From the sequence record OK322699.1: a DNA stretch of 64,000 bases; one strand, written 5' to 3'. Source of the stretch: Escherichia phage Sa157lw. Below the pieces are notes generated by a model. The model saw only the letters and a list, made by a program, of their open reading frames with translations. It ran no database searches and had not been told where the DNA came from. Shown one piece after another: positions 15,549-60,572 of the stretch (its first letter is position 1; each line of letters starts with the position of its first letter). The translations under genes and the position numbers were made by a program.

Positions 15549-15575
15549 CAGAGGCTATAATGGCCTCTGTTTTTG
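15549..15575 (+). terminator. stem-loop CAGAGGC tataatg GCCTCTG + TTTTTG
   Basis: inverted repeat read directly. Confidence 0.6.
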
Positions 15576-15593
15576 TATTCTAGAGAGGATACC

Positions 15594-16817
15594 ATGAAAG
15601 ATAAACCGTGTGACATTCCTTATTGCGGTGTTCGGGAAACCAAAATTAAATCTGCACACCCCACGTTAAGTCCATTCCATAAACAACTCGCATACGAATG
15701 GATGAGCGAGCGCTATAAGATCCACGTGAGAAAGGACGTCCAACGTCTTCCTGCTCCTTGGACGGATAATCCCATACTACGGCAGGTCAAGTTCTGTAAC
15801 GTCCGGAGAGAGCACGACAGGCAGTCTCTTAACCTGATCAACAATATCGTCAAGAACGATGCTCTGGGCATTGCCGACAAGATGTTCAACTGTGTTCTGT
15901 TCCGCATGTTCAACCTCTGGGACCCGATCAAGGCTATCGGTGACGCTCGTACTATCAAAGAGTTCGCAAACATCGATCTTGATGCAACCCGCAAAAGTCT
16001 TCAGGAATTTGAGGCCAACGGTGGTAAGATCTTCACCAATGCCTTCAACACAGGCGGTCTAAAGCAGTGTCTGGCGTTCCCCGAACTCGTTGTCAACCAC
16101 AAGGAGCAGCGCTTTGGTGGTATGATGGTTAAGGTACACCGTGTTGGCCAGGGTATCGTTGATGAATTGGATTACAAGGTCGCCAAGAAGCTGGTTGAAG
16201 AAAATCCTGGGGAGTACACGATCGAGGGCTGGGAGCCGTACATGCCGATGCGTGTTATCCGTTCCCTGAAGGCATTTGTCAACAAGTATCCTGATTATTT
16301 CAATGATCTTTTACGTCTTGACTCTCCGCTGAAAGTTTACCAGCGCATGTATGACGACATTGAAGGGCTTGGGCCATTCCTGGCATATCAGATATGGGTG
16401 GACTTCACATACATCCCTGAGTATCCATTCAGTGAGAATCACTTCACCATCGCTGGCCCAGGTTGCCGTGCGGGTATTGACCTGATGTTCCTGGATAAGG
16501 ACGGTATGACTCATGAAGAGTGCATCTTCTGGGTTCGAGATCACCAGTATCAATTGTTTGCCCAGTATGGTTATGTCCAAGAGCAGTTCTGGTCAGCCGA
16601 AGCGCCGGAAGATCAGTGCATGAATGTCATGCAGCTGGAGAACATGTTCTGTGAATTGAGCAAGTACACCCGCTGTGTTGAGGCCATTGAGAGAGGGGAA
16701 AAGCCACGCGGCAAGGTCGGTTACGATGGAGGCGGAGAATACAAAAAGCGGTGCGATGAAGTTGTCCTCAAACGCGGTTCCGTCAATTTGTTAGATCGTT
16801 TGAAGAAACCTGAATAA
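15594..16817 (+). CDS. hypothetical protein (407 aa)
   Basis: ORF 15573..16817 trimmed to MKDKP with GAGAGG RBS; no confident domain match. Confidence 0.45.
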   Translation: MKDKPCDIPYCGVRETKIKSAHPTLSPFHKQLAYEWMSERYKIHVRKDVQRLPAPWTDNPILRQVKFCNVRREHDRQSLNLINNIVKNDALGIADKMFNCVLFRMFNLWDPIKAIGDARTIKEFANIDLDATRKSLQEFEANGGKIFTNAFNTGGLKQCLAFPELVVNHKEQRFGGMMVKVHRVGQGIVDELDYKVAKKLVEENPGEYTIEGWEPYMPMRVIRSLKAFVNKYPDYFNDLLRLDSPLKVYQRMYDDIEGLGPFLAYQIWVDFTYIPEYPFSENHFTIAGPGCRAGIDLMFLDKDGMTHEECIFWVRDHQYQLFAQYGYVQEQFWSAEAPEDQCMNVMQLENMFCELSKYTRCVEAIERGEKPRGKVGYDGGGEYKKRCDEVVLKRGSVNLLDRLKKPE

Positions 16818-16864: not shown

Positions 16865-16929
16865 GACCTCACTTTAACGACGCGCCCATTTAGGGCGCTC
16901 AATTTGAACTGAAACAGGAAGACTATACC

Positions 16930-18951
16930 ATGGCAGAATTCAAACCTTTCGCAACGGCTGTTAATGATAACGTGCTGGCGATGTCCGCAACTGGTCTGTT
17001 TATGACCAACGTTGATAAAGATGCTCTGTGGGATTTGTATTTGGCATCCTTCCCAGCTGGTACCAACCCGATGTACCGCGAACGCACTGAACACGACTGC
17101 ACCTGCTGTAAACAATTCATCCGTAATATCGGCGGCGTCGTGACTATCGATGCTGACCTGAACGTTATCTCGATTTGGGACAACATTGAGCTGGGTAACG
17201 AATACGACGTGGTGGCTGCGGCGCTGTCGACCTTCGTTAAACAACACGCAATCGTCGACGTGTATTTCAACGATTCTGCTAAAGTCGGCCTGTCTCATAA
17301 CCACGAATCTGGTGAAGACGGCAAAATCCGCACGTATAACCATTTCCACACCGAACTGCTCGGCAGCTATGTCCTGCGTTCTGATGCTATTGCATCTAAA
17401 AAAGGTGAAATCCGACAGGCTATCGAATTATTTGAACGCGGTCTGCGTGAAATTACTCTGGAATCAGCAGAAATCGTTCTGGAATTGATTGATCAGAATT
17501 CTTTGTATCGCGGCGCTGAACATAAAGCTGCGGTGATGGGCTTCGTAGTAGCCAAGACGGCATATGAAGAAATCCCAGAATCTAACCGTTCTCTGTGGGC
17601 ATGGCGCACTGGTTATCGTTCAAACAATCATGTTCCACATGGCATTCGCAACACCGTTATCGGTACTCTGTTGACTGATATCAGTGAAGGCGTGGAACTG
17701 GAAAAGGCCGTTAAGTCGTTTGAAACCAAAGTTGCCCCAGCGAACTACAAACGCCCGACGGCTCTGGTCTCCAAGTCCATGATCGAAAACGCTCAGAAAG
17801 AAGTGATTGCTCTCGGTCTGGAAGATTCGCTGGCGCGTCGTTATGCAGTTTATGACGACCTGACGATCAATAACGTTCTGTTTGCAGACCTGGCTGCTCA
17901 AAAAGCGATGGATCCATTCGCTCAACTGGCCGCCGAAGTGAAAACGCCGACCAAGTCGCTGGATAAAGTTGAAGAGATTGGCATTGACGACTTCCTGAGC
18001 AATATCCTGCCGAAAGCGCATTCAATGGAAGTGCTGGTTGAAAACTCGCATACTGGCAACCTTATGTCTCTGGTCGCTCCGGCTATTGCAGGTGCTCCTA
18101 ACCTTTTCAAATGGGGCAACGGTTTCTCATGGTCATACAACGGCGAAGTGGCCGACTCCATCAAAGAGCGTGTGAAAGCGGCTGGCGGTAAAGTCGACGG
18201 GTTCCTCCGTGTATCCCTGGCTTGGCACAACAACGATGACCTCGATCTGCATATGTTCTTTAACAATATGGAACATGTGTACTTCCGCGATCGTCGTTCA
18301 ATGACTGGTGCTCATCTCGATATCGACATGAACGGTATGGACGGCATCGACCCGAACCGCTCTCCGGTAGAAAACATCATCTTCACTGATGAAAGAAAGC
18401 TGCGTGACGGTGAATATCGTTTTGAGATTCACAACTACAACCAACGTGAAAAGATCGACGAAGGGTTTGAAATTGAAGTTGAATACAAAGGCGCTACGCA
18501 ACGTTTTAGCCACAATGGGTTAAAAGACCAGGGGCGCATCACTGCCGTCGTTCTGACTGTTAAAGACAAACAAGTCGTTAGCATCAAGTCTGAGCTGGCG
18601 AATGTTGATAAATCCAAAGAAATTTGGGGCATTAAGACAGCGACCTTCCAGAAGGTACAGCTGGTCCTGAACTCACCAAACCATTGGGATGGTGAACAAA
18701 CTGGCAACAAGCACGTCTTCTTCATCTTGGAAGGTTGTGCGAATCCTGAAGGTACTCGTGGTTTCTACAATGAATATCTGAAGCCGGAACTGGATAAACA
18801 TCGTAAGGTTTTTGAAATGTTGGGTAGTAAAATGAAAGTACAACCCAACGAAAACCAACTGTCTGGTTTGGGGTTCTCGACAACGCAACGCAACCATGTG
18901 TTCGTCAAAGTGTCCGGCGCGTTTAACCGTACTGTAAAAGTCATTTTCTAA
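16930..18951 (+). CDS. hypothetical large early protein (673 aa)
   Basis: long ORF with conserved leader; no confident domain match. Confidence 0.5.
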   Translation: MAEFKPFATAVNDNVLAMSATGLFMTNVDKDALWDLYLASFPAGTNPMYRERTEHDCTCCKQFIRNIGGVVTIDADLNVISIWDNIELGNEYDVVAAALSTFVKQHAIVDVYFNDSAKVGLSHNHESGEDGKIRTYNHFHTELLGSYVLRSDAIASKKGEIRQAIELFERGLREITLESAEIVLELIDQNSLYRGAEHKAAVMGFVVAKTAYEEIPESNRSLWAWRTGYRSNNHVPHGIRNTVIGTLLTDISEGVELEKAVKSFETKVAPANYKRPTALVSKSMIENAQKEVIALGLEDSLARRYAVYDDLTINNVLFADLAAQKAMDPFAQLAAEVKTPTKSLDKVEEIGIDDFLSNILPKAHSMEVLVENSHTGNLMSLVAPAIAGAPNLFKWGNGFSWSYNGEVADSIKERVKAAGGKVDGFLRVSLAWHNNDDLDLHMFFNNMEHVYFRDRRSMTGAHLDIDMNGMDGIDPNRSPVENIIFTDERKLRDGEYRFEIHNYNQREKIDEGFEIEVEYKGATQRFSHNGLKDQGRITAVVLTVKDKQVVSIKSELANVDKSKEIWGIKTATFQKVQLVLNSPNHWDGEQTGNKHVFFILEGCANPEGTRGFYNEYLKPELDKHRKVFEMLGSKMKVQPNENQLSGLGFSTTQRNHVFVKVSGAFNRTVKVIF

Positions 18952-18988
18952 TTGATTTGACAACAACTTCGTAATAAGGAACAAAGAA

Positions 18989-19360
18989 ATGTTTGATCAA
19001 GCAACCCGTTTAAAACTGCGTTTTAACTCTAACAAAGGTCTGCTGTCTGTTGAGCAGGTTTGGGATCTGAATCTGAACGCACTGAACGAGCTGGCGAAAG
19101 ATCTGAGCCGTCAGGTGAAAGAAGCAGCCAGCGATGAAGAAGACTTCATCGGTGTGAAAAGCGCGGTCGATTCTCAGTTACAACTGCGGTTCGATATCGT
19201 GAAAGCGATCATCGGTGTTAAACTGAAAGAACGCGATGAAAGCGCGACCGCAGCAGAGCGTAAAGCGAACAACCAGGCGATCATGGAACTGATCCAGCGT
19301 AAGAAACAACAGGAACTGGAAGGTCTGTCTGTTGAAGAACTGGAAAAACTCCTGAAATAA
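18989..19360 (+). CDS. hypothetical coiled-coil protein
   Basis: 123 aa, heptad-rich, AAGGAACAAAGAAATG start. Confidence 0.45.
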   Translation: MFDQATRLKLRFNSNKGLLSVEQVWDLNLNALNELAKDLSRQVKEAASDEEDFIGVKSAVDSQLQLRFDIVKAIIGVKLKERDESATAAERKANNQAIMELIQRKKQQELEGLSVEELEKLLK

Positions 19361-19380
19361 TCTGACGGCTCCGGCCTGAG

Positions 19381-19408
19381 AAACCCCGCCGTGTGCGGGG
19401 TTTCTTTT
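19381..19408 (+). terminator. rho-independent terminator AAACCCCGC cgtgt GCGGGGTTT + CTTTT
   Basis: near-identical to terminator at 3368-3397. Confidence 0.75.
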
Positions 19409-19419
19409 GGACAAAAATC

Positions 19420-19830
19420 ATGAAATCTATTACGTGTGATTACTGCGGTCAACCTGCCCAATACGTCGGGTGTGATGTTGTATACCCCCACCGCCCCGAC
19501 CTCCGCAATCTGAAGTTCTGGGTATGCTCGCCATGCGACGCTCGTGTGGGTTGCCATACCCATGGGGATGGTAGACAACCTCTGGGAAGGATGGCGAATG
19601 CCGCTCTCCGTGCTGCTAAGCAGGAAGCTCATAGATCGTTTGACCCTATCTGGAAAGGTGGGCAGAGGAGCAGGAGTGATGCTTACAGCTGGCTGGCTCA
19701 TAATCTGGGGATCAAGAAGCGCGATTGCCATATCGGCTTGTTCGATATCGATATGTGCCGTAAAGTAGTCGCTGTGTGTAATCAACTAAAGGCACAAGAT
19801 AATGTCAAAGGAAATACAAGAAGCATTTGA
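19420..19830 (+). CDS. zinc-finger protein (CxxC..CxxC)
   Basis: ORF 19393..19830 trimmed to MKSITCDYCG; cysteine pairs CDYCG / CSPCD. Confidence 0.45.
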   Translation: MKSITCDYCGQPAQYVGCDVVYPHRPDLRNLKFWVCSPCDARVGCHTHGDGRQPLGRMANAALRAAKQEAHRSFDPIWKGGQRSRSDAYSWLAHNLGIKKRDCHIGLFDIDMCRKVVAVCNQLKAQDNVKGNTRSI

Positions 19831-20053
19831 AAAATTATCTCAGGTAATGACCGACTGCAACCGCCGGAATTATTGTGATGAAGCGTATACCAAATTGAAA
19901 ACTGCTGTTGAAACCGAGCTGGCAGGTCTTTCCGTTTTCAAAGATATTCAGACCGAAGTGCTATATCTGTCGGATGAAGATTTAAGGCGTTGCCCCCGCA
20001 AGATTTACCAATTACTGGATCGTTTGGTGAAAGTGGGGGTGAATAATGGGTAA
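19802..20053 (+). CDS. hypothetical small protein
   Basis: 83 aa ORF overlapping neighbours. Confidence 0.3.
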   Translation: MSKEIQEAFEKLSQVMTDCNRRNYCDEAYTKLKTAVETELAGLSVFKDIQTEVLYLSDEDLRRCPRKIYQLLDRLVKVGVNNG

Positions 20054-20771
20054 TCGTGAAGGGATTAAACTCACACCAGAACTTCTGAAGTCACATATTG
20101 CTGAAGTGATTTATGAAGACCGTGAAGTTGGTGGTCACCGCGTCATTACATGCCATTTCAAGATGGACAATGGGTTCGTTGTGTGGGGTAAGAATAGTTC
20201 CACATCGGTAGACCCTGCCAACTTCGATGAAGAAATAGGCAAGCAGCTGGCCTATGAAAAGACCTTTTCTCAACTGTGGGAACTGGAAGCATATCGCGCG
20301 ATGGTAGAAAAGCAGATCATCGATGTGTCTGCCGAAGATGCTAAGATCAACATTGATGAATATGTGTCAGAAAGGGAAGCGATACATGAGATGGGTGGTT
20401 CTGAATTTCTTAAGGGTAAAGGACAATCCATCGTGTTTCGTCATCCCAAAGATCCAAGTCGGGGATTTCGCGTTGAATTTGTTCGCACCGATAATGAACG
20501 TTATAACGAACGACGCAATGGTGAGGCACGATCTTTGGTGGAAGCGTATCTTCGCTCGTTCATGACTTCTGAAGAACTAAATTCTGAACTTGTCTTGCGT
20601 TTGGCGAAAACGTGTAATGCTGCTTCAGGGGATTATCCGTGGTGTGACCTGTCAGAAGACAAACGCCAAGCAGCCTGTGATCGTGTTAAGAAATTCTTGT
20701 TAGATCCGAAAGCCCAACCTGGTGATTCCGTAGGGGCACTGTATAGAGCCATTGTGGTGTCCTACTTGTAA
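20046..20771 (+). CDS. hypothetical protein
   Basis: 241 aa ORF, ATGA-coupled to upstream gene. Confidence 0.45.
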   Translation: MGNREGIKLTPELLKSHIAEVIYEDREVGGHRVITCHFKMDNGFVVWGKNSSTSVDPANFDEEIGKQLAYEKTFSQLWELEAYRAMVEKQIIDVSAEDAKINIDEYVSEREAIHEMGGSEFLKGKGQSIVFRHPKDPSRGFRVEFVRTDNERYNERRNGEARSLVEAYLRSFMTSEELNSELVLRLAKTCNAASGDYPWCDLSEDKRQAACDRVKKFLLDPKAQPGDSVGALYRAIVVSYL

Positions 20772-21038
20772 TTCTTCAAAAGTCTTTCAAAATCAATAAC
20801 GTCCGGCAAAATGCTGGGCGTTTCAATTAATAAGCCAAGGTATAATGGCCCAACTGAAAACGCGGGGGAATTTCTTTGTCCAAGCCATTCATTCGTTCCG
20901 GAGTTGATTCTCTAGACTCCCAATTTAAGCCGAGCGAAGTTTTAATCCAACAAATTGAAACCAATCGTGAATTCATAGAACACATGTTGGCAAAGCCGGA
21001 AGGCGAAGCCGCTCAAACCACCAAAGAAGGTAATAACG

Positions 21039-23255
21039 ATGATTGAATCATTAACATTTAAAAATGCGGTAGCAACCGTCGCGCCGTCTAACCATGTAAT
21101 CGTTGTGGATATCTCCGGTTCCATGTACCGTTCACTTCCTGAAGTTCGCAAGCATCTGAAGGAAAATCTCCCGTCTCTGGTTAAACCAGAAGATACCGTC
21201 AGCATTCTTTACTTTTCATCCCGTGGTGATTTCGGTACGGTATTCGCTGGCCGTCAGATCAATAGCGCGACCGATCTCAGTGAAATCAATAAACTGATTG
21301 ACCGCTTCCTGCAACCGTCCGGTTGTACGGGATTTGTAGAACCTCTGAAGTTGGCTGCTGAAACCGCGTTGAGCCTGAACAAACCTGGTTATGTCAATAA
21401 CCTGGCGTTCATGACCGACGGCTATGACAACTGCTGGCGCTCTAATGAAATTCTGGCAGCAGCTGAAGTACTGCCCAAGGCGTTCGATAATATTACATTC
21501 ATCGAATATGGCTGGTATTGTAACCGCGAACTTCTGGCTCTGATGTCCGAGCGTTCTGGCGCGACTCACGTGTTTGCCGAAGGTCAGACTGAATATCAGA
21601 CCGAACTGGAAAACGTACTGAAATCATCTACGCCGAAAGTGGTTGTTGATGTTCCCCTGGTTTACACTCATGCCATCTACGTTGAAAACGGCGTGGCAAC
21701 TGTGCTAGCCGTACAACCCGATGAAGAACACCCGATTGGCCACGTCAGCATCCCTGAAAGCGTTTCTCAGCTGTGGGTTGTAAACCCTAACATGATCGAC
21801 CAGCTGGATAATCTGGCAGACACCCAGGCGGCATACGTGCTGGCATTCTATGGCGTGTACACCATGGACGCCGATCTGGTCTGGGCCGCGCTGAAGAAGA
21901 CGGGTGACGTCCGCTTCATCAAACAATACAGCAACTGTTTCACCAAGCAGGACTATTCCAACATCAAAGTCGATCTGACCCAGGCTATCGTGGATGAAAC
22001 TCTACGCGGCGTAGATGGCATCGATTACAATATGGTTCCAGCTGAAGATGCAACGACCATTGTTGATGTCTTGACCTACCTGGCCGAAGCCGATGTCTCT
22101 GTTGTCACTAAGCATCCATTGTTCTCTTACAACAGCATCGGTCGCGGCACTGTGCAGAAAGTTGATGACACTGAAGACAAGCTGGCTGAACAAATCGCCG
22201 AAGCCAAAACCAAAGCAGAGCGTAAAGCGCTGGCTCTCAAACTGGCTGAGCACGAAGATTGGACACCGGAATTTACTCCGGTTGATGACAAAGGGATTGT
22301 CCCAATTAGCAATCTGGTCTACAATTCAGAGCGCCCTAACATCAGCATTCAGACCGTTCAGCATGGGACGGTTGTTGTGCCGGAGTTCGTACAGAAGAAA
22401 TATGAACTCCCTGAAGAACTGGGAACCTGGCGTTATCGTAATTACACCATCGTCAAAGATGGAATCATCAACCTGAAGACGATGCCGATTACTGCCGAAT
22501 CTCCGATTGTCCGAGCTAAGGTTGTCCAAGATTTGATCGCCATGGGCGTTAATGTATTTGGTGGACCGGAAATCTTCATCGTTAATTTAGAAAGCGTTCC
22601 GATGGTCAACCGCGCCATGACCAAGAACATCAGTGCTGCCGAATTCTTCGCTGACAACGTTCGTCGCGAAGCGCTGAAGGCAAAACAGAAAGTTCTGAAA
22701 TTCTATCGTGATGAACTGGTTGGCAAAGGCAATGCAACTGGTCTGGCTTCTAAATATGGTAAAGAAGCCGCCGATTTCTTGTCGGCAAATGGCATTCGCG
22801 ACTACGGGTTCTCGCCGAAAACTACTTCTGTGGAATCAACCGATGTCTACATGAGCCGTGAGCTGAATGTGAAAATCAAAGGTGCTTCGTCGCTGCCGAG
22901 CATTGCGTCAGTTATCAAAAAGCAAGCAGATGGTAAAAAACTGAATGTCGCTGATCAGTTGATTGCCAATGCTTTGGCCGAATACGACGCTTTTGTTAAA
23001 TCGCCAATGATCACCAGCGTACCTGAAGAGACTCAGAAAAAGCTGATTGAAAGCTGGATCGGAGACGCAGCAAAAGCGGCCATTAACGAAGTCCGCGCCC
23101 TGAACAAAACTCTGTCTAAAGTAGTTTACGGCATCGTCGCTGGTCATGGTTGGTTCACTGATTTGGATCTGGAAGAGTCTACGATGGATGTAGAAGTTGA
23201 TGGGGTGAAATACACCGTCACTGCCGAACTGGCCGAAAAAGAAATCAAAATCTAA
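21039..23255 (+). CDS. von Willebrand factor A (vWA) domain protein with MIDAS motif
   Basis: 738 aa; N-terminal VVDISGSM (DxSGS) and downstream FMTDGYDN consistent with vWA/MIDAS. Confidence 0.55.
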   Translation: MIESLTFKNAVATVAPSNHVIVVDISGSMYRSLPEVRKHLKENLPSLVKPEDTVSILYFSSRGDFGTVFAGRQINSATDLSEINKLIDRFLQPSGCTGFVEPLKLAAETALSLNKPGYVNNLAFMTDGYDNCWRSNEILAAAEVLPKAFDNITFIEYGWYCNRELLALMSERSGATHVFAEGQTEYQTELENVLKSSTPKVVVDVPLVYTHAIYVENGVATVLAVQPDEEHPIGHVSIPESVSQLWVVNPNMIDQLDNLADTQAAYVLAFYGVYTMDADLVWAALKKTGDVRFIKQYSNCFTKQDYSNIKVDLTQAIVDETLRGVDGIDYNMVPAEDATTIVDVLTYLAEADVSVVTKHPLFSYNSIGRGTVQKVDDTEDKLAEQIAEAKTKAERKALALKLAEHEDWTPEFTPVDDKGIVPISNLVYNSERPNISIQTVQHGTVVVPEFVQKKYELPEELGTWRYRNYTIVKDGIINLKTMPITAESPIVRAKVVQDLIAMGVNVFGGPEIFIVNLESVPMVNRAMTKNISAAEFFADNVRREALKAKQKVLKFYRDELVGKGNATGLASKYGKEAADFLSANGIRDYGFSPKTTSVESTDVYMSRELNVKIKGASSLPSIASVIKKQADGKKLNVADQLIANALAEYDAFVKSPMITSVPEETQKKLIESWIGDAAKAAINEVRALNKTLSKVVYGIVAGHGWFTDLDLEESTMDVEVDGVKYTVTAELAEKEIKI

Positions 23256-23293
23256 ATCTAATTGGCGGGGAAACCCGCCTTTACTTTCAGGAA

Positions 23294-23611
23294 ATGAATA
23301 TGAGCAACAAACCGACTTATGTTGATGTCATGCGCGATTTGGCCCAATACGCATGTGACAACCTGAACATGGAAACTTGGCGCGACGGCGATCATAAAGA
23401 AAAGTTCGATAATATCGACGACAACATCGATGCGTTGGCTCCTCTTCGGGCCAAGAGCGATCTCGGCGGTGATGATCTTGACATGATTGAACTCATCATG
23501 GAAGTTGAAGAACAATATGATGTTGAAATCAGTGATGACTGGGTAGGCAAACATGGTGATGATCCCACGCTCGGCGAATTAGCTGAATTGGTAGTTGCCC
23601 TCAGCAAGTAA
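23294..23611 (+). CDS. acyl carrier protein-like protein lacking the phosphopantetheine-acceptor Ser (DDLD instead of DSLD)
   Basis: C-terminal DLGGDDLDMIELIMEVEEQYDVEISDD mirrors ACP helix II [20 protein letters not shown]..IPDE. Confidence 0.45.
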   Translation: MNMSNKPTYVDVMRDLAQYACDNLNMETWRDGDHKEKFDNIDDNIDALAPLRAKSDLGGDDLDMIELIMEVEEQYDVEISDDWVGKHGDDPTLGELAELVVALSK

Positions 23612-23619
23612 ACCAAAAG

Positions 23620-23648
23620 AATCCCCAATATTTATTGGGGATTTTTAC
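23620..23648 (+). terminator. stem-loop AATCCCCAATA ttt TATTGGGGATT + TTTT
   Basis: 11-bp inverted repeat read directly. Confidence 0.6.
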
Positions 23649-23657
23649 TTTTAGGGG

Positions 23658-23686
23658 TTTACTTCTTCTAAAGAATATCCTATTAT
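23658..23686 (+). promoter_or_regulatory. early sigma70-type promoter (-35 TTTACT, 17-bp spacer, -10 TATTAT)
   Basis: promoter family member; TTCAATAA lies just downstream of -10. Confidence 0.5.
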
Positions 23687-23731
23687 TCAATAACTGGCTA
23701 ACGTGGGGTTGGCTAGAAAAGGAGATACAAA

Positions 23732-23971
23732 ATGAAACTACCAGGTCATATTGAAGTTTATATGCGGTTATACAAAGAAGGTAACGCCGCTGCTAAAGAA
23801 CTACACGAACTGATTTTGTCATACGGCGTTAAGTCTGTTACAGAAGTAAAGAACAACAAAATAGACGGCGAATATGTGTCAATCAATGGGCGTGGTCTGA
23901 AAACCAACCCAACATATTTTGTGGGTGTCCATTTAGACACAGGGAAAGAAGTCGTGGAGATCGTGGCATAA
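23732..23971 (+). CDS. hypothetical small protein
   Basis: 79 aa, AAAGGAG RBS. Confidence 0.4.
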   Translation: MKLPGHIEVYMRLYKEGNAAAKELHELILSYGVKSVTEVKNNKIDGEYVSINGRGLKTNPTYFVGVHLDTGKEVVEIVA

Positions 23972-24210
23972 TGTCTAATAAGAAAGTTGAAACGACGGTA
24001 GAAATTGATCGTAATTGGGGATTACTCCGCGCTAAAGGTTTTCGTCGTGTTTATATGACCAAGGAAGTTTATGTTCAGCGTCGCGACGTTATTATCAGCA
24101 AGAAAGGTAAAGAGTGGGTTGCTGAAGAAGTTGACATTGAAACAGGTGTCGTGGGCAAAGTAAAAGCGAAGGCGGCTATTTTGTTTTCTCTTCTGAAGCA
24201 TATCAATTAA
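23971..24210 (+). CDS. hypothetical small protein
   Basis: 79 aa, start overlaps upstream stop. Confidence 0.35.
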   Translation: MSNKKVETTVEIDRNWGLLRAKGFRRVYMTKEVYVQRRDVIISKKGKEWVAEEVDIETGVVGKVKAKAAILFSLLKHIN

Positions 24211-24223
24211 TTCTATAAACTCC

Positions 24224-24250
24224 GGCGGGGTATGATTACCCCGCCTATTT
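24224..24250 (+). terminator. stem-loop GGCGGGG tatgatta CCCCGCC + TATTT
   Basis: inverted repeat. Confidence 0.5.
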
Positions 24251-24294
24251 GAAATTGCAGGAACTTATATCATGATCTCTGTCGAGGGTATAAT

Positions 24295-24582
24295 ATGACA
24301 AAGGAACAAGAACTCGCTTTGTTCTCTATGGTTCGCAGTAATGTTAAATTGAGTTTTAGACAAGTGGACTCCATTATTGATCTTATGAAAATTAAGAATT
24401 CCATAGATAACGATCATTTGCGCACCGCTCTTTTGGGATTGTTGGAATTCGTTTTGCGCGGATCTGATCTTGGACCAGTGAATGATATTGACGACCTGAC
24501 CAAATTGTTAAACACTGGCGGTGATGGTTTCGATACCGCTCGTATTCTGATTAACTGTGGTCCTAACAAAGAAGAGGTATGA
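24295..24582 (+). CDS. hypothetical small protein
   Basis: 95 aa ORF. Confidence 0.35.
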   Translation: MTKEQELALFSMVRSNVKLSFRQVDSIIDLMKIKNSIDNDHLRTALLGLLEFVLRGSDLGPVNDIDDLTKLLNTGGDGFDTARILINCGPNKEEV

Positions 24583-24774: not shown

Positions 24775-25224
24775 ATGTTCCTTACATCCTTTATTGACTG
24801 GATGAATATCATAAATGGCCTGAGGATCCCTGTTGGGAACCTCGGGCTTTCTCGTTCTTCTATGCCGCAAATCGATGCCGACAAACAAGAAGATTTTCAC
24901 AAATATCTTGAAGACAACGGCGTGTCTATAGATGCTGCGCAAGTGCCCATCAAAATGCTTCGTCTTACCCAGAACGAAATCAACAAGATGAAGGTCTGGA
25001 AGATTATGAAGCAAATCCGAAATAAGAAACCTATGGGTCGAGTTTGGGTGTCTTCTGACAATTACGTTGTTGACGGATCTCACCGATTTGTCGCTGCGTT
25101 GAACATGGACGGCAAACAGCGCATGAAGGTCTACAAAGTTGATTTGCCAGCGATGGAATTTGTTAAACTCGCTAAACAGTTTCAAGGGGTGCGATACAGA
25201 ACGGTCAGCGATACCCGTTTCTGA
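24775..25224 (+). CDS. ParB/Srx-like nuclease domain protein
   Basis: 149 aa; VVDGSHRFVAA resembles the DGxHR core of ParB N-terminal/sulfiredoxin fold. Confidence 0.45.
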   Translation: MFLTSFIDWMNIINGLRIPVGNLGLSRSSMPQIDADKQEDFHKYLEDNGVSIDAAQVPIKMLRLTQNEINKMKVWKIMKQIRNKKPMGRVWVSSDNYVVDGSHRFVAALNMDGKQRMKVYKVDLPAMEFVKLAKQFQGVRYRTVSDTRF

Positions 25225-59534: not shown

Positions 59535-60572
59535 ATGGGTAACTTATTTGATCGTCTTAAACAATCTCGTGGCCAACAAGCCGAAGCCATGCAACAGCGT
59601 CTCGCTCAGCAAGGTCAGCGTGTTGGTGGCGGTCGTGACCCGCGCATCTGGAAGTGGACTTGGAATGAAAAAGGCACTTCCGAAAACATTATTCGTTTCC
59701 TGCCTATCCCTTTAGTGGACATGAAGGCTCAAGAAGAAGGCACCATCCCTGAAGATGCTGTGTTAACTCCATGCGCCATGATCATGAAACACGCTTTCCA
59801 GGGTGCTGGCGGCTGGTATATCGAAAACTCACCTCAGACTTTCGGTAACGATGATCCGGTTCGTGACCATGATCGTCCTCTGTGGGCACAACAGAAAGAA
59901 ACGAACGATGAAAAACTGAAGACGGTCCTGAAAAAACGTCTGCCGGACACCAAATACTACGCCAACATTCTAGTGATCAAAGATGGCAATAATCCGGAAA
60001 ATAACGGCAAGGTCTTCTTGCTGGAATTCGGTAATGCCGTCAAGAAAATCCTGGATTCGGCTCAGAATCCTAAGTTCTCAACCGACCCGAAATTCGACCC
60101 GTTCGATATGTGGGAAGGTGCGAATCTGATTCTTAACCTGTTCGGCGAAGAGAAAGAGTTCGGAAACTGGAAAGGCCTGGTTGCCAACTTCACCAACGTG
60201 AAGTGGGATAGTCCGGCACCGCTGGGAACCGACGAATACATTGAAGAGATCTGGGAAAAAGAGCACAGCTTGTTTGAGTTCTTTAATCCGGCCAACTTCA
60301 AATCGTACGAAGATCTGGAAAAACGTTTGCGCAAAGTTCTGGCCATCCCTGATAATCAGCCTCTGGTTGAAGGTGGTGCTTCTACTATGGCACATGCGCC
60401 TACCCAGTCTCAGGAACCCCAGCGCCCGACAGCGCAGGAAAGCCTGAACCAACAACAATCTCAGCCTTCTAATGCACAGCAATCTGTTCCAGCCAATAAT
60501 GGTGGTGCGGGTGCCGATGCGAAACAGACGGCTTCCATTGATGAGTTCGAGCAGTTCCTGAAGCAAGACTAA
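59535..60572 (+). CDS. 32: single-stranded DNA-binding protein gp32
   Basis: YYANILVIKDGNNPENNGKVFLLEFG aligns with T4 gp32 core; acidic C-terminus. Confidence 0.85.
   Translation: MGNLFDRLKQSRGQQAEAMQQRLAQQGQRVGGGRDPRIWKWTWNEKGTSENIIRFLPIPLVDMKAQEEGTIPEDAVLTPCAMIMKHAFQGAGGWYIENSPQTFGNDDPVRDHDRPLWAQQKETNDEKLKTVLKKRLPDTKYYANILVIKDGNNPENNGKVFLLEFGNAVKKILDSAQNPKFSTDPKFDPFDMWEGANLILNLFGEEKEFGNWKGLVANFTNVKWDSPAPLGTDEYIEEIWEKEHSLFEFFNPANFKSYEDLEKRLRKVLAIPDNQPLVEGGASTMAHAPTQSQEPQRPTAQESLNQQQSQPSNAQQSVPANNGGAGADAKQTASIDEFEQFLKQD

Follow-up and report, generated by a model that had tools for sequence, protein, structure and literature searches.

A MIDAS-bearing vWA protein with a family-specific C-terminal module in Kuttervirus and other phages

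Where von Willebrand factor A (vWA) domains carry a metal-ion-dependent adhesion site (MIDAS), as in integrin I domains, TRAP, ITIH, CbbO and midasin, the metal is coordinated jointly with a carboxylate of the partner protein. Domains of the vWA type also serve as assembly scaffolds, as in Ku70/80, TFIIH p44/p34, Integrator INTS13/14 and Ro60. Here we describe a phage protein that joins a MIDAS-bearing vWA domain to a C-terminal module specific to its family. It is encoded on the + strand at positions 21039..23255 of a 64,000-nucleotide (nt) stretch of Escherichia phage Sa157lw (OK322699.1; the whole stretch is hereafter the window), in a coding sequence of 738 codons plus stop that opens with ATG, and it is the Kuttervirus member of PHROG 2426, a group annotated as function unknown. 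We read the protein as a soluble, cytoplasmically made, two-module factor that would bind proteins through its MIDAS, use the C-terminal module as an effector and act without an ATPase partner, and we give this reading a probability of about 45%. Its fold, MIDAS conservation, modularity, phage restriction, absent partner gene and expression are directly supported.

A vWA protein was annotated in these phages as early as 2012, so the bare finding of one is not new. New here are a C-terminal module (C-module) without a recognisable relative, the family-wide conservation of the MIDAS, a natural split between the modules, confinement to phages and the lack of a partner gene.

The two modules of the protein

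A first-pass annotation of the window had called a 738-residue open reading frame (ORF) with a MIDAS motif at 21039-23255, and the call held up: the ORF is exact, the Pfam vWA model PF00092 matches residues 20-183 above its cut-off (E 8.1e-7; 29.9 bits versus 23.8), and an alignment of 244 full-length relatives (29-96% identity to the query), g068 of Bacillus phage AR9 among them, shows 98-100% conservation at the five MIDAS positions. The vWA domain has an alpha/beta Rossmann-like fold and spans residues ~17-196 (21087..21626; this and all further features lie on the + strand unless stated). Its first MIDAS motif, the DxSxS sequence D24-I-S26-G-S28 within VVDISGSM (21108..21122), is 98% conserved at each residue; T97 (21327..21329) and D127 in TDGYDN (21417..21419) are each 100% conserved. 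A profile built from 35 homologs lines these motifs up with the DxSxS and TDG of ArnB, ITIH1 and Plasmodium TRAP. A vWA fold with a complete MIDAS is thus present, far beyond chance, and metal binding is predicted; the conservation pattern indicates that the MIDAS is under strong purifying selection. Residues ~197-249 (21627..21785) form a beta-sandwich that, with the vWA domain, makes up a unit like those of ArnB, Sec23/24 and ITIH.

Searches of the PDB returned no match with the full protein sequence and only vWA domains with the profile; NCBIfam gave sub-threshold vWA matches only, and the PADLOC defence models gave none. The protein has an isoelectric point (pI) of 5.0 and a net charge of -24.5, and neither a transmembrane segment nor a signal-peptide-like N-terminus was found in it. 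On inspection, the N-terminus showed no recognisable capsid-targeting or protease-site motif of T4 type. At its other end the protein has a conserved acidic stretch, AEKEIKI here and LEEKEIKI in the family consensus, that might act in trans as a MIDAS ligand. The full-length AlphaFold2 model, computed from a 35-sequence alignment, is confident (predicted local distance difference test, pLDDT, 86.3).

The C-module occupies residues ~250-738 (21786..23252) and consists of a helical part followed by beta-rich and helical parts. Modelled alone, residues 197-738 reach a pLDDT of 89.6 and a predicted template modelling score of 0.78. The first-pass annotation had proposed a domain search of the C-terminal ~500 residues, and this part proved uncharacterised: despite the confident prediction, the model of residues ~250-738 has no match in the PDB, Pfam or BFVD, in a fold search that covered the PDB and BFVD with a 542-residue multi-domain query, in which single-domain similarities may be hidden. 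Scanning 35 family members against Pfam at E up to 1 gave no recurrent C-terminal family, and an hhalign comparison for internal duplication in the C-module was negative.

Conservation in the C-module is concentrated in the motifs GDVRxIKxYxNCFTKQDYS, RPNIS, YRNYTIVKDGI, GIRDYGFSPK, TDxYxSKELNVKIKGxSSLP and GxxWF. Some 20 polar residues are near-invariant, among them D290, K303, Q304, Y364, R432, N434, S436, R467, D474, N524, K551, D602, Y604 and S617. Residues 411-594 stand out from the otherwise acidic protein by being basic throughout the family (median pI 8.2-8.8). Candidate R-S-E ADP-ribosyltransferase and PD-(D/E)xK motifs, picked out by eye, were rejected, their residues lying outside the 90%-conserved set and no such fold having been found.

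The two modules also occur apart. On a 370-kb metagenomic phage contig (L084:4567-7482), a 294-residue protein corresponds to the vWA/beta-sandwich part, matching residues 15-272 at 39% identity (E 7e-50); an unrelated 164-residue ORF follows, and then a 493-residue C-module gene. A complete stand-alone C-module gene of 514 residues, with an HSP20 gene just before it, lies on another contig (L082:648-2192). Judged from these sequences, the C-module is an autonomous unit that can be separately encoded.

By analogy with characterised MIDAS proteins, module 1 (residues 1 to ~250) would hold Mg2+ (or Mn2+), and a carboxylate of a partner protein, from an Asp or Glu side chain, would complete the metal coordination. 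Because of the established behaviour of MIDAS-bearing vWA domains, we read module 1 as a putative target clamp, that is, the target-recognition or anchoring part. Module 2 (residues ~250-738) would then be the effector or scaffold part, and possibly catalytic, because of its many invariant polar residues. The protein would operate without a dedicated AAA+ (MoxR) ATPase or a conserved neighbouring gene; it is produced during infection, and some of it may end up in particles.

Family distribution and gene neighbourhood

The protein matches phrog_2426 end to end (1259 bits; residues 1-738 on profile positions 2-736 of 736). A search of a large protein database found 240 relatives, with full-length coverage down to ~34% identity, and tblastn placed the family in 503 phage records. 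These comprise Ackermannviridae, KP15/Lw1-type Straboviridae, Rhizobium phages (Kleczkowskaviridae and Pootjesviridae), Ralstonia phage RP13, Pseudomonas phage pf16, Shewanella phage Thanatos and the Bacillus jumbo phages AR9, PBS1, Goe21 and BpSp. Eight distant members (from AR9, Rhizobium phages and metagenomes) all match phrog_2426, seven of them over essentially the whole profile; the N-terminal vWA domain was detected in 7/8 distant full-length members. Against a representative library of 1.84 billion proteins, the C-terminal 542 residues matched 1025 clusters at 50% identity, of which 383 fall below 1e-30; almost all members are 680-820 residues long, with the match starting at residue 200-330. 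Among 185,579 bacterial and archaeal species (one genome each) we found five loci, at least one of which lies on a phage-sized contig. As far as sequence databases can tell, the family is in effect phage-restricted. A literature search found no characterised phage homolog and no anti-defence role.

The first-pass annotation had framed the window against T4. Over bases 16900-24300 the sequence has 100% identity to Salmonella phage SeF3a, and many Kuttervirus genomes, among them Vi01 (98.9%), ECML-4 and Det7, match it at 97-99.9%; proteins 95.5-100% identical to the vWA protein are present in Kuttervirus records. This near-identity identifies the genome as a Kuttervirus (Ackermannviridae), T4-related but not T4. 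The narrower statement that the protein has no T4 core function stands: it has no T4 homolog and, as a member of PHROG 2426, matches no known tail or baseplate family. The gene had also been placed in an accessory block; a published comparison counts its product as one of the proteins conserved in representatives of the Vi01-like subclusters (PMC10892097), and it is therefore not accessory there.

That vWA proteins pair with MoxR-type AAA+ ATPases had raised the expectation of such a partner, which was not borne out. The 64-kb window holds no MoxR-type gene, the sole ORF with a strict Walker-A motif being PhoH-like, and no MoxR/AAA+ or ChlI-like gene is annotated at the equivalent region of related records. 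We then called and clustered ORFs within 8 kb of the family gene at 64 viral loci plus Lw1, Goe21, RHph_Y65 and a soil metagenome contig (~68 in total), and used vWA identity to sort these loci into 20 clades. Every neighbour family is limited to 5/20 clades or fewer, and none of the most frequent is an AAA+ ATPase; the most frequent are a 149-residue protein and topoisomerase II/gyrase subunits. Immediately adjoining ORFs are not conserved across clades, except the acyl carrier protein (ACP)-like gene in Ackermannviridae and DNA ligase in two clades. Neither an ACP gene nor a shared partner appears in the annotated contexts of Lw1, Goe21/AR9, RHph_Y65, RP13, RL38J1 and pf16. With neighbours unconserved and no ATPase, the vWA protein is thus, by these comparisons, a stand-alone unit in surroundings loosely enriched in DNA- and nucleotide-metabolism genes.

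These surroundings bear on a different explanation, in which the protein assists, as an accessory factor, in transactions of DNA or RNA (replication, repair, recombination or packaging), its vWA domain serving as scaffold and its central basic region contacting nucleic acid. Clamp, clamp loader, MazG and aGPT-Pplase genes lie upstream in the window, 4-5 of the 20 clades have topoisomerase II/gyrase subunit genes within 2-6 kb, and a DNA ligase gene adjoins in Thanatos and at one further locus (L050, by Pfam; a homolog adjoins at L066), with SbcD-like, gyrase, RecJ, dUTPase/ribonucleotide reductase (RNR) and DNA polymerase III epsilon subunit genes nearby elsewhere; the family-wide basic pI of residues 411-594 fits as well. 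The neighbourhood link is loose, however, and to be expected where such genes abound in large phage genomes. The 35 members scanned share no recurring nucleic-acid-binding Pfam domain, the protein as a whole is strongly acidic, and Ku, TFIIH p44 and Sec23 typically lack an intact MIDAS. We regard a role of this kind as distinctly unlikely.

The gene just downstream, at 23294..23611, encodes an ACP-like protein that scores above the cut-off of the Pfam PP-binding model and below those of all NCBIfam ACP models. Where E. coli AcpP has the serine to which phosphopantetheine is attached (DSL), the phage protein has Asp or Glu (DDL/DEL), as do 18/18 distinct Ackermannviridae homologs examined. Given this replacement, the protein cannot be a normal ACP and looks like an acidic ACP mimic or decoy.

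The first-pass annotation had suggested that the vWA protein forms a host-interaction module with the ACP-like protein and small neighbouring ORFs; a related proposal makes it a substrate adaptor of a MoxR-type AAA+ ATPase of phage or host, for example RavA. MoxR ATPases are indeed the working partners of many cytoplasmic MIDAS-vWA proteins, the ACP-like gene sits beside the vWA gene across the whole of Ackermannviridae (LIMEstone1 and Bue1 among them), and the conserved Asp/Glu of the ACP-like protein is an exposed carboxylate of the type that a MIDAS could bind. We nevertheless hold this to be the least probable of the explanations considered, and highly improbable. The ACP-like gene is not beside the family gene in the non-Ackermannviridae phages named above, a terminator-like hairpin separates the two genes in the window, neither a MoxR gene there nor a conserved neighbour across the 20 clades was found, and the vWA domain is N-terminal, unlike that of ViaA, CbbO, NorD and ChlD. 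AR9, moreover, has a canonical ATPase-vWA pair in g028/g029, an AAA-family ATPase beside a zincin-protease-vWA fusion, transcribed from 5 min (PMC5312081 Table S4); it is separate from the family member g068, which stands alone and is expressed late.

The immediate setting of the vWA gene is compact. A GAAGG Shine-Dalgarno sequence sits ahead of its ATG, and its start codon overlaps the stop of a 56-residue ORF (phrog_8656; 20876..21046), with which it is probably translationally coupled; this ORF is confined to Ackermannviridae, and no homolog of it lies upstream of the family gene in the remaining clades. In annotated records the + strand order runs from clamp, clamp loader, RegA, MazG-like pyrophosphatase and aGPT-Pplase, through a 673-residue protein (phrog_1735) and small ORFs that include DUF3268 and N4-gp49-like genes, to the 56-residue ORF, the vWA gene, the ACP-like gene, more small ORFs, a ParB-N-like gene and the spanins. 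Among the small ORFs, the DUF3268 (zinc-finger-containing domain) gene lies at 19393-19830 (Pfam, E 5.6e-37), and a gene for a 241-residue protein with an N-terminal domain of the N4 gp49/Sf6 gp66 family lies at 20046-20771 (Pfam, E 9.7e-13).

Two upstream genes merit separate mention. The gene at 15573-16817, ~4 kb upstream of the vWA gene, is labelled aGPT-Pplase clade 1 in related records, that is, alpha-glutamyl/putrescinyl thymine pyrophosphorylase of the thymidine hypermodification pathway, and is preceded by the MazG-like pyrophosphatase gene. We found no link between it and the vWA gene. A general connection to thymidine hypermodification was rejected, as KP15-type phages have the vWA family and a published analysis found no such genes in them; it is further disfavoured by the variable genes between the two loci. 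The 673-residue protein (16930-18951) has no match in Pfam, NCBIfam or PADLOC and is conserved over its full length in 458 phage records from very different families, with homologs in CR9/KB57-type, Caulobacter, Pseudomonas pf16, Bacillus BCP01, Clostridioides and Microcystis phages. In some records it carries the label 'putative DNA-directed RNA polymerase', and Sajous1 virions yielded 3+1 spectra for it (PMC10892097). As a partner of the vWA protein it was rejected: its phyletic distribution is unlike that of the vWA family, and it is not at the equivalent position in LIMEstone1.

Expression and virion association

Mass spectrometry of purified virions, a check that the first-pass annotation had proposed, gives a divided picture. 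In LIMEstone1, ORF108, 83.6% identical to the vWA protein, was identified by 6 unique peptides at 11.4% coverage, as compared with 7 peptides for the tape measure protein, 6 for gp27, 7 for gp6 and 1 each for obvious contaminants (PMC3296691); the LIMEstone1 record marks it 'confirmed structural protein'. In caesium chloride-purified virions of the Kuttervirus Sajous1, the vWA protein yielded a single spectrum, which is the level of dUTPase and thymidylate synthase; the capsid protein yielded 924 and the tape measure protein 52 (PMC10892097). The Thanatos ortholog was detected in a 'virion' sample among 104/206 phage proteins, DNA ligase included, and the sample is uninformative because half of the phage proteins were detected in it. 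Proteomics papers on phiD3, PD10.3/PD23.1, AG3, KP15/KP27 and pf16 hold no information on the vWA protein.

A neighbour has a clearer record. The ParB-N-like gene at 24775-25224 encodes 149 residues, annotated in Guerrero as containing a ParB N-terminal domain, although Pfam has no match at E 0.01 or better, and its product is 83% identical to an 'unknown structural protein' of LIMEstone1 confirmed by mass spectrometry. Its likely homolog in Sajous1, by annotation and synteny, is gp192 (ParB N-terminal domain), for which virions gave 11 spectra (PMC10892097). A small particle-associated protein is thus apparently encoded in the middle of the non-structural block.

Transcription data come from AR9, where g068 is strictly late and monocistronic, with fragments per kilobase per million reads of 0.96, 105.6 and 431.5 at 5, 20 and 40 min. 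The late-promoter motif AACA-N6-TG stands ahead of its mapped start site, and most virion proteins fall into the same expression class, as does the virion RNA polymerase (PMC5312081).

In the window, a sigma-70-type -10 hexamer (G-TATAAT, a motif match) at 20841..20846 marks a candidate promoter in the 105-nt gap before the 56-residue ORF and the vWA gene. The same element occurs in the gaps before the RNR large-subunit ORF (48494) and before the ORF at 59535, which has the position of ssb by synteny with SeF3a. Two promoter-like motif classes are visible overall: G-TATAAT before + strand ORFs (20841, 24289, 39863, 48494 and 59458) and T4-type late elements on the minus strand (56784, 61586 and 32808). 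The latter, TATAAATA or TATAAGTA, stand ~25-35 nt ahead of minus-strand ORFs in the region that SeF3a annotates as baseplate and tail. On the + strand between 12 and 27 kb, TATAAATA is absent, and in the window it is not enriched over shuffled sequence (3 observed, 1.7 expected). With g068 late in AR9 and these motifs in the window, timing may therefore differ between lineages.

Nine nt past the vWA stop, at 23264..23279, a terminator scan found a terminator-like GC hairpin, GGCGGGGAAACCCGCC, with a T-rich tail, ahead of the ACP-like gene; the LIMEstone1 record has a terminator annotated at the equivalent position. The hairpin and the lack of conservation outside Ackermannviridae leave little of the suggested module with the ACP-like and small genes. 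A second terminator-like hairpin, AATCCCCAATA...TATTGGGGATT, palindromic and seen in the minus-strand scan, lies directly past the ACP-like gene (23620-23643), where LIMEstone1 annotates a terminator and an early promoter.

These data bear most on the alternative that the protein is a low-copy virion component, made late, packaged in the head or attached to the tail, and acting at the next infection, either ejected with the DNA in the manner of T4 Alt and the internal proteins or displayed on the particle as a MIDAS-dependent adhesin. The LIMEstone1 peptide count, at the level of tape measure, gp27 and gp6 and above the contaminants, would favour it, as would the strictly late AR9 expression from an own promoter, in a class shared with most virion proteins, and the two virion detections of the ParB-N-like protein, which show that the block encodes particle-associated proteins. 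The Sajous1 count at dUTPase level pulls the other way, the Thanatos sample being uninformative. So do the location of the gene, which in most lineages lies amid genes for replication and nucleotide metabolism, the lack of a late promoter of T4 type upstream in the window, and a sequence in which no signal peptide, fibre-like repeat or similarity to a virion protein in BFVD or the PDB was found. On balance we consider a virion-borne role somewhat unlikely, yet the strongest competitor of the two-module binding factor.

The reading as an intracellular MIDAS-dependent factor has several points to answer. The six LIMEstone1 virion peptides would be more easily squared with a particle protein than with a factor confined to the cell. 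Lineages also disagree on timing: the gene is strictly late in AR9, whereas here it has a sigma-70-like -10 element upstream and no T4-type late promoter. The vWA/MIDAS analogy, from which ligand binding is predicted, leaves the identity of the target unspecified; the effector or enzymatic role of module 2 is suggested by its conservation pattern, and a part with a purely structural or scaffolding role would look much alike. Any single-domain similarities hidden from the fold search would also count against a fold peculiar to the family.

A bolder version combines the two views: the C-terminal 490 residues would be a new enzyme fold, and the protein a late-made, particle-carried effector injected with the DNA, its MIDAS seizing a conserved acidic residue on a universal bacterial target that is then modified or disabled. 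We hold this for quite improbable. If true, a particle-carried effector would be a new kind of injected phage protein and, with an enzyme fold, a new class of takeover or anti-defence effector common to large phages of Gram-negative and Gram-positive hosts. If the particle-carried reading is wrong, the protein stays ordinary though widespread phage 'dark matter'. The family, almost all of it in large phages, has at least 1000 clusters at 50% identity; it ranges from the jumbo phages of Bacillus to Salmonella Kuttervirus, and the latter genus finds use in biocontrol and phage therapy. Identifying the MIDAS target would assign a function to a gene listed as conserved in the Vi01-like (Ackermannviridae) phages.

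Comparison with known systems

GenBank names for the gene vary ('hypothetical', 'vWA domain protein', 'magnesium chelatase', 'minor tail protein'). The Mg-chelatase D label, found in one record, was rejected: Pfam and NCBIfam detect no AAA domain, the vWA domain sits at the N-terminus, and a ChlI-like gene is lacking. The protein has no AAA-like or proline-rich region, so 'magnesium chelatase' is a misnomer. More generally, MoxR-associated vWA proteins (ViaA-RavA, CbbO-CbbQ, NorD-NorQ, ChlD/BchD-ChlI and CobT-CobS) have a C-terminal vWA domain, whereas that of the phage protein is N-terminal, and they differ from it in having an AAA+ partner, which is lacking in the window and in every conserved neighbourhood.

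Other comparisons fall short in different ways. The core beta-barrel and bridge fold that follows the vWA domain in Ku70/80 was not found in the phage protein, and PHROG and BFVD comparisons gave no homology to any annotated structural family of T4-type tails or baseplates. T4 Alt and the internal proteins, made late, packaged in the head and injected, offer a functional analogy only, through the late AR9 ortholog and the LIMEstone1 virion detection; they share no sequence or fold similarity with the phage protein, and packaging is unconfirmed in Sajous1.

The closest structural relatives lie at the N-terminus. ITIH1 (6fpy) and ITIH4 (9c4f) share the vWA/beta-sandwich arrangement with the phage protein, but they are secreted by eukaryotes, carry a VIT domain at the N-terminus and have nothing related to the C-module. 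The trunk and beta-barrel core of Sec23/24 shows the same arrangement, as does ArnB/vWA2 of Sulfolobus acidocaldarius (PDB 8s05 and 5a8j). Sec23/24 have no functional MIDAS and carry zinc-finger, helical and gelsolin domains in addition; ArnB, of ~380 residues, works with the FHA/zinc-ribbon protein ArnA under phosphorylation control. Measured against these two systems, the phage protein has the vWA domain followed directly by a packed beta-sandwich and lacks the zinc-finger and helical/gelsolin domains; neither ArnB nor Sec23/24 has the 490-residue C-module, which is unmatched to their C-terminal parts. A vWA protein of Catenulispora acidiphila (PDB 4fx5) has the same N-terminal architecture as the phage protein; it differs in being bacterial, 426 residues long and of unknown function, and it covers only the first ~300 phage residues. 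What sets the phage protein apart is that the vWA/MIDAS unit, a well-understood metal-dependent protein clamp, is here permanently fused to a module of ~490 residues and unmatched fold.

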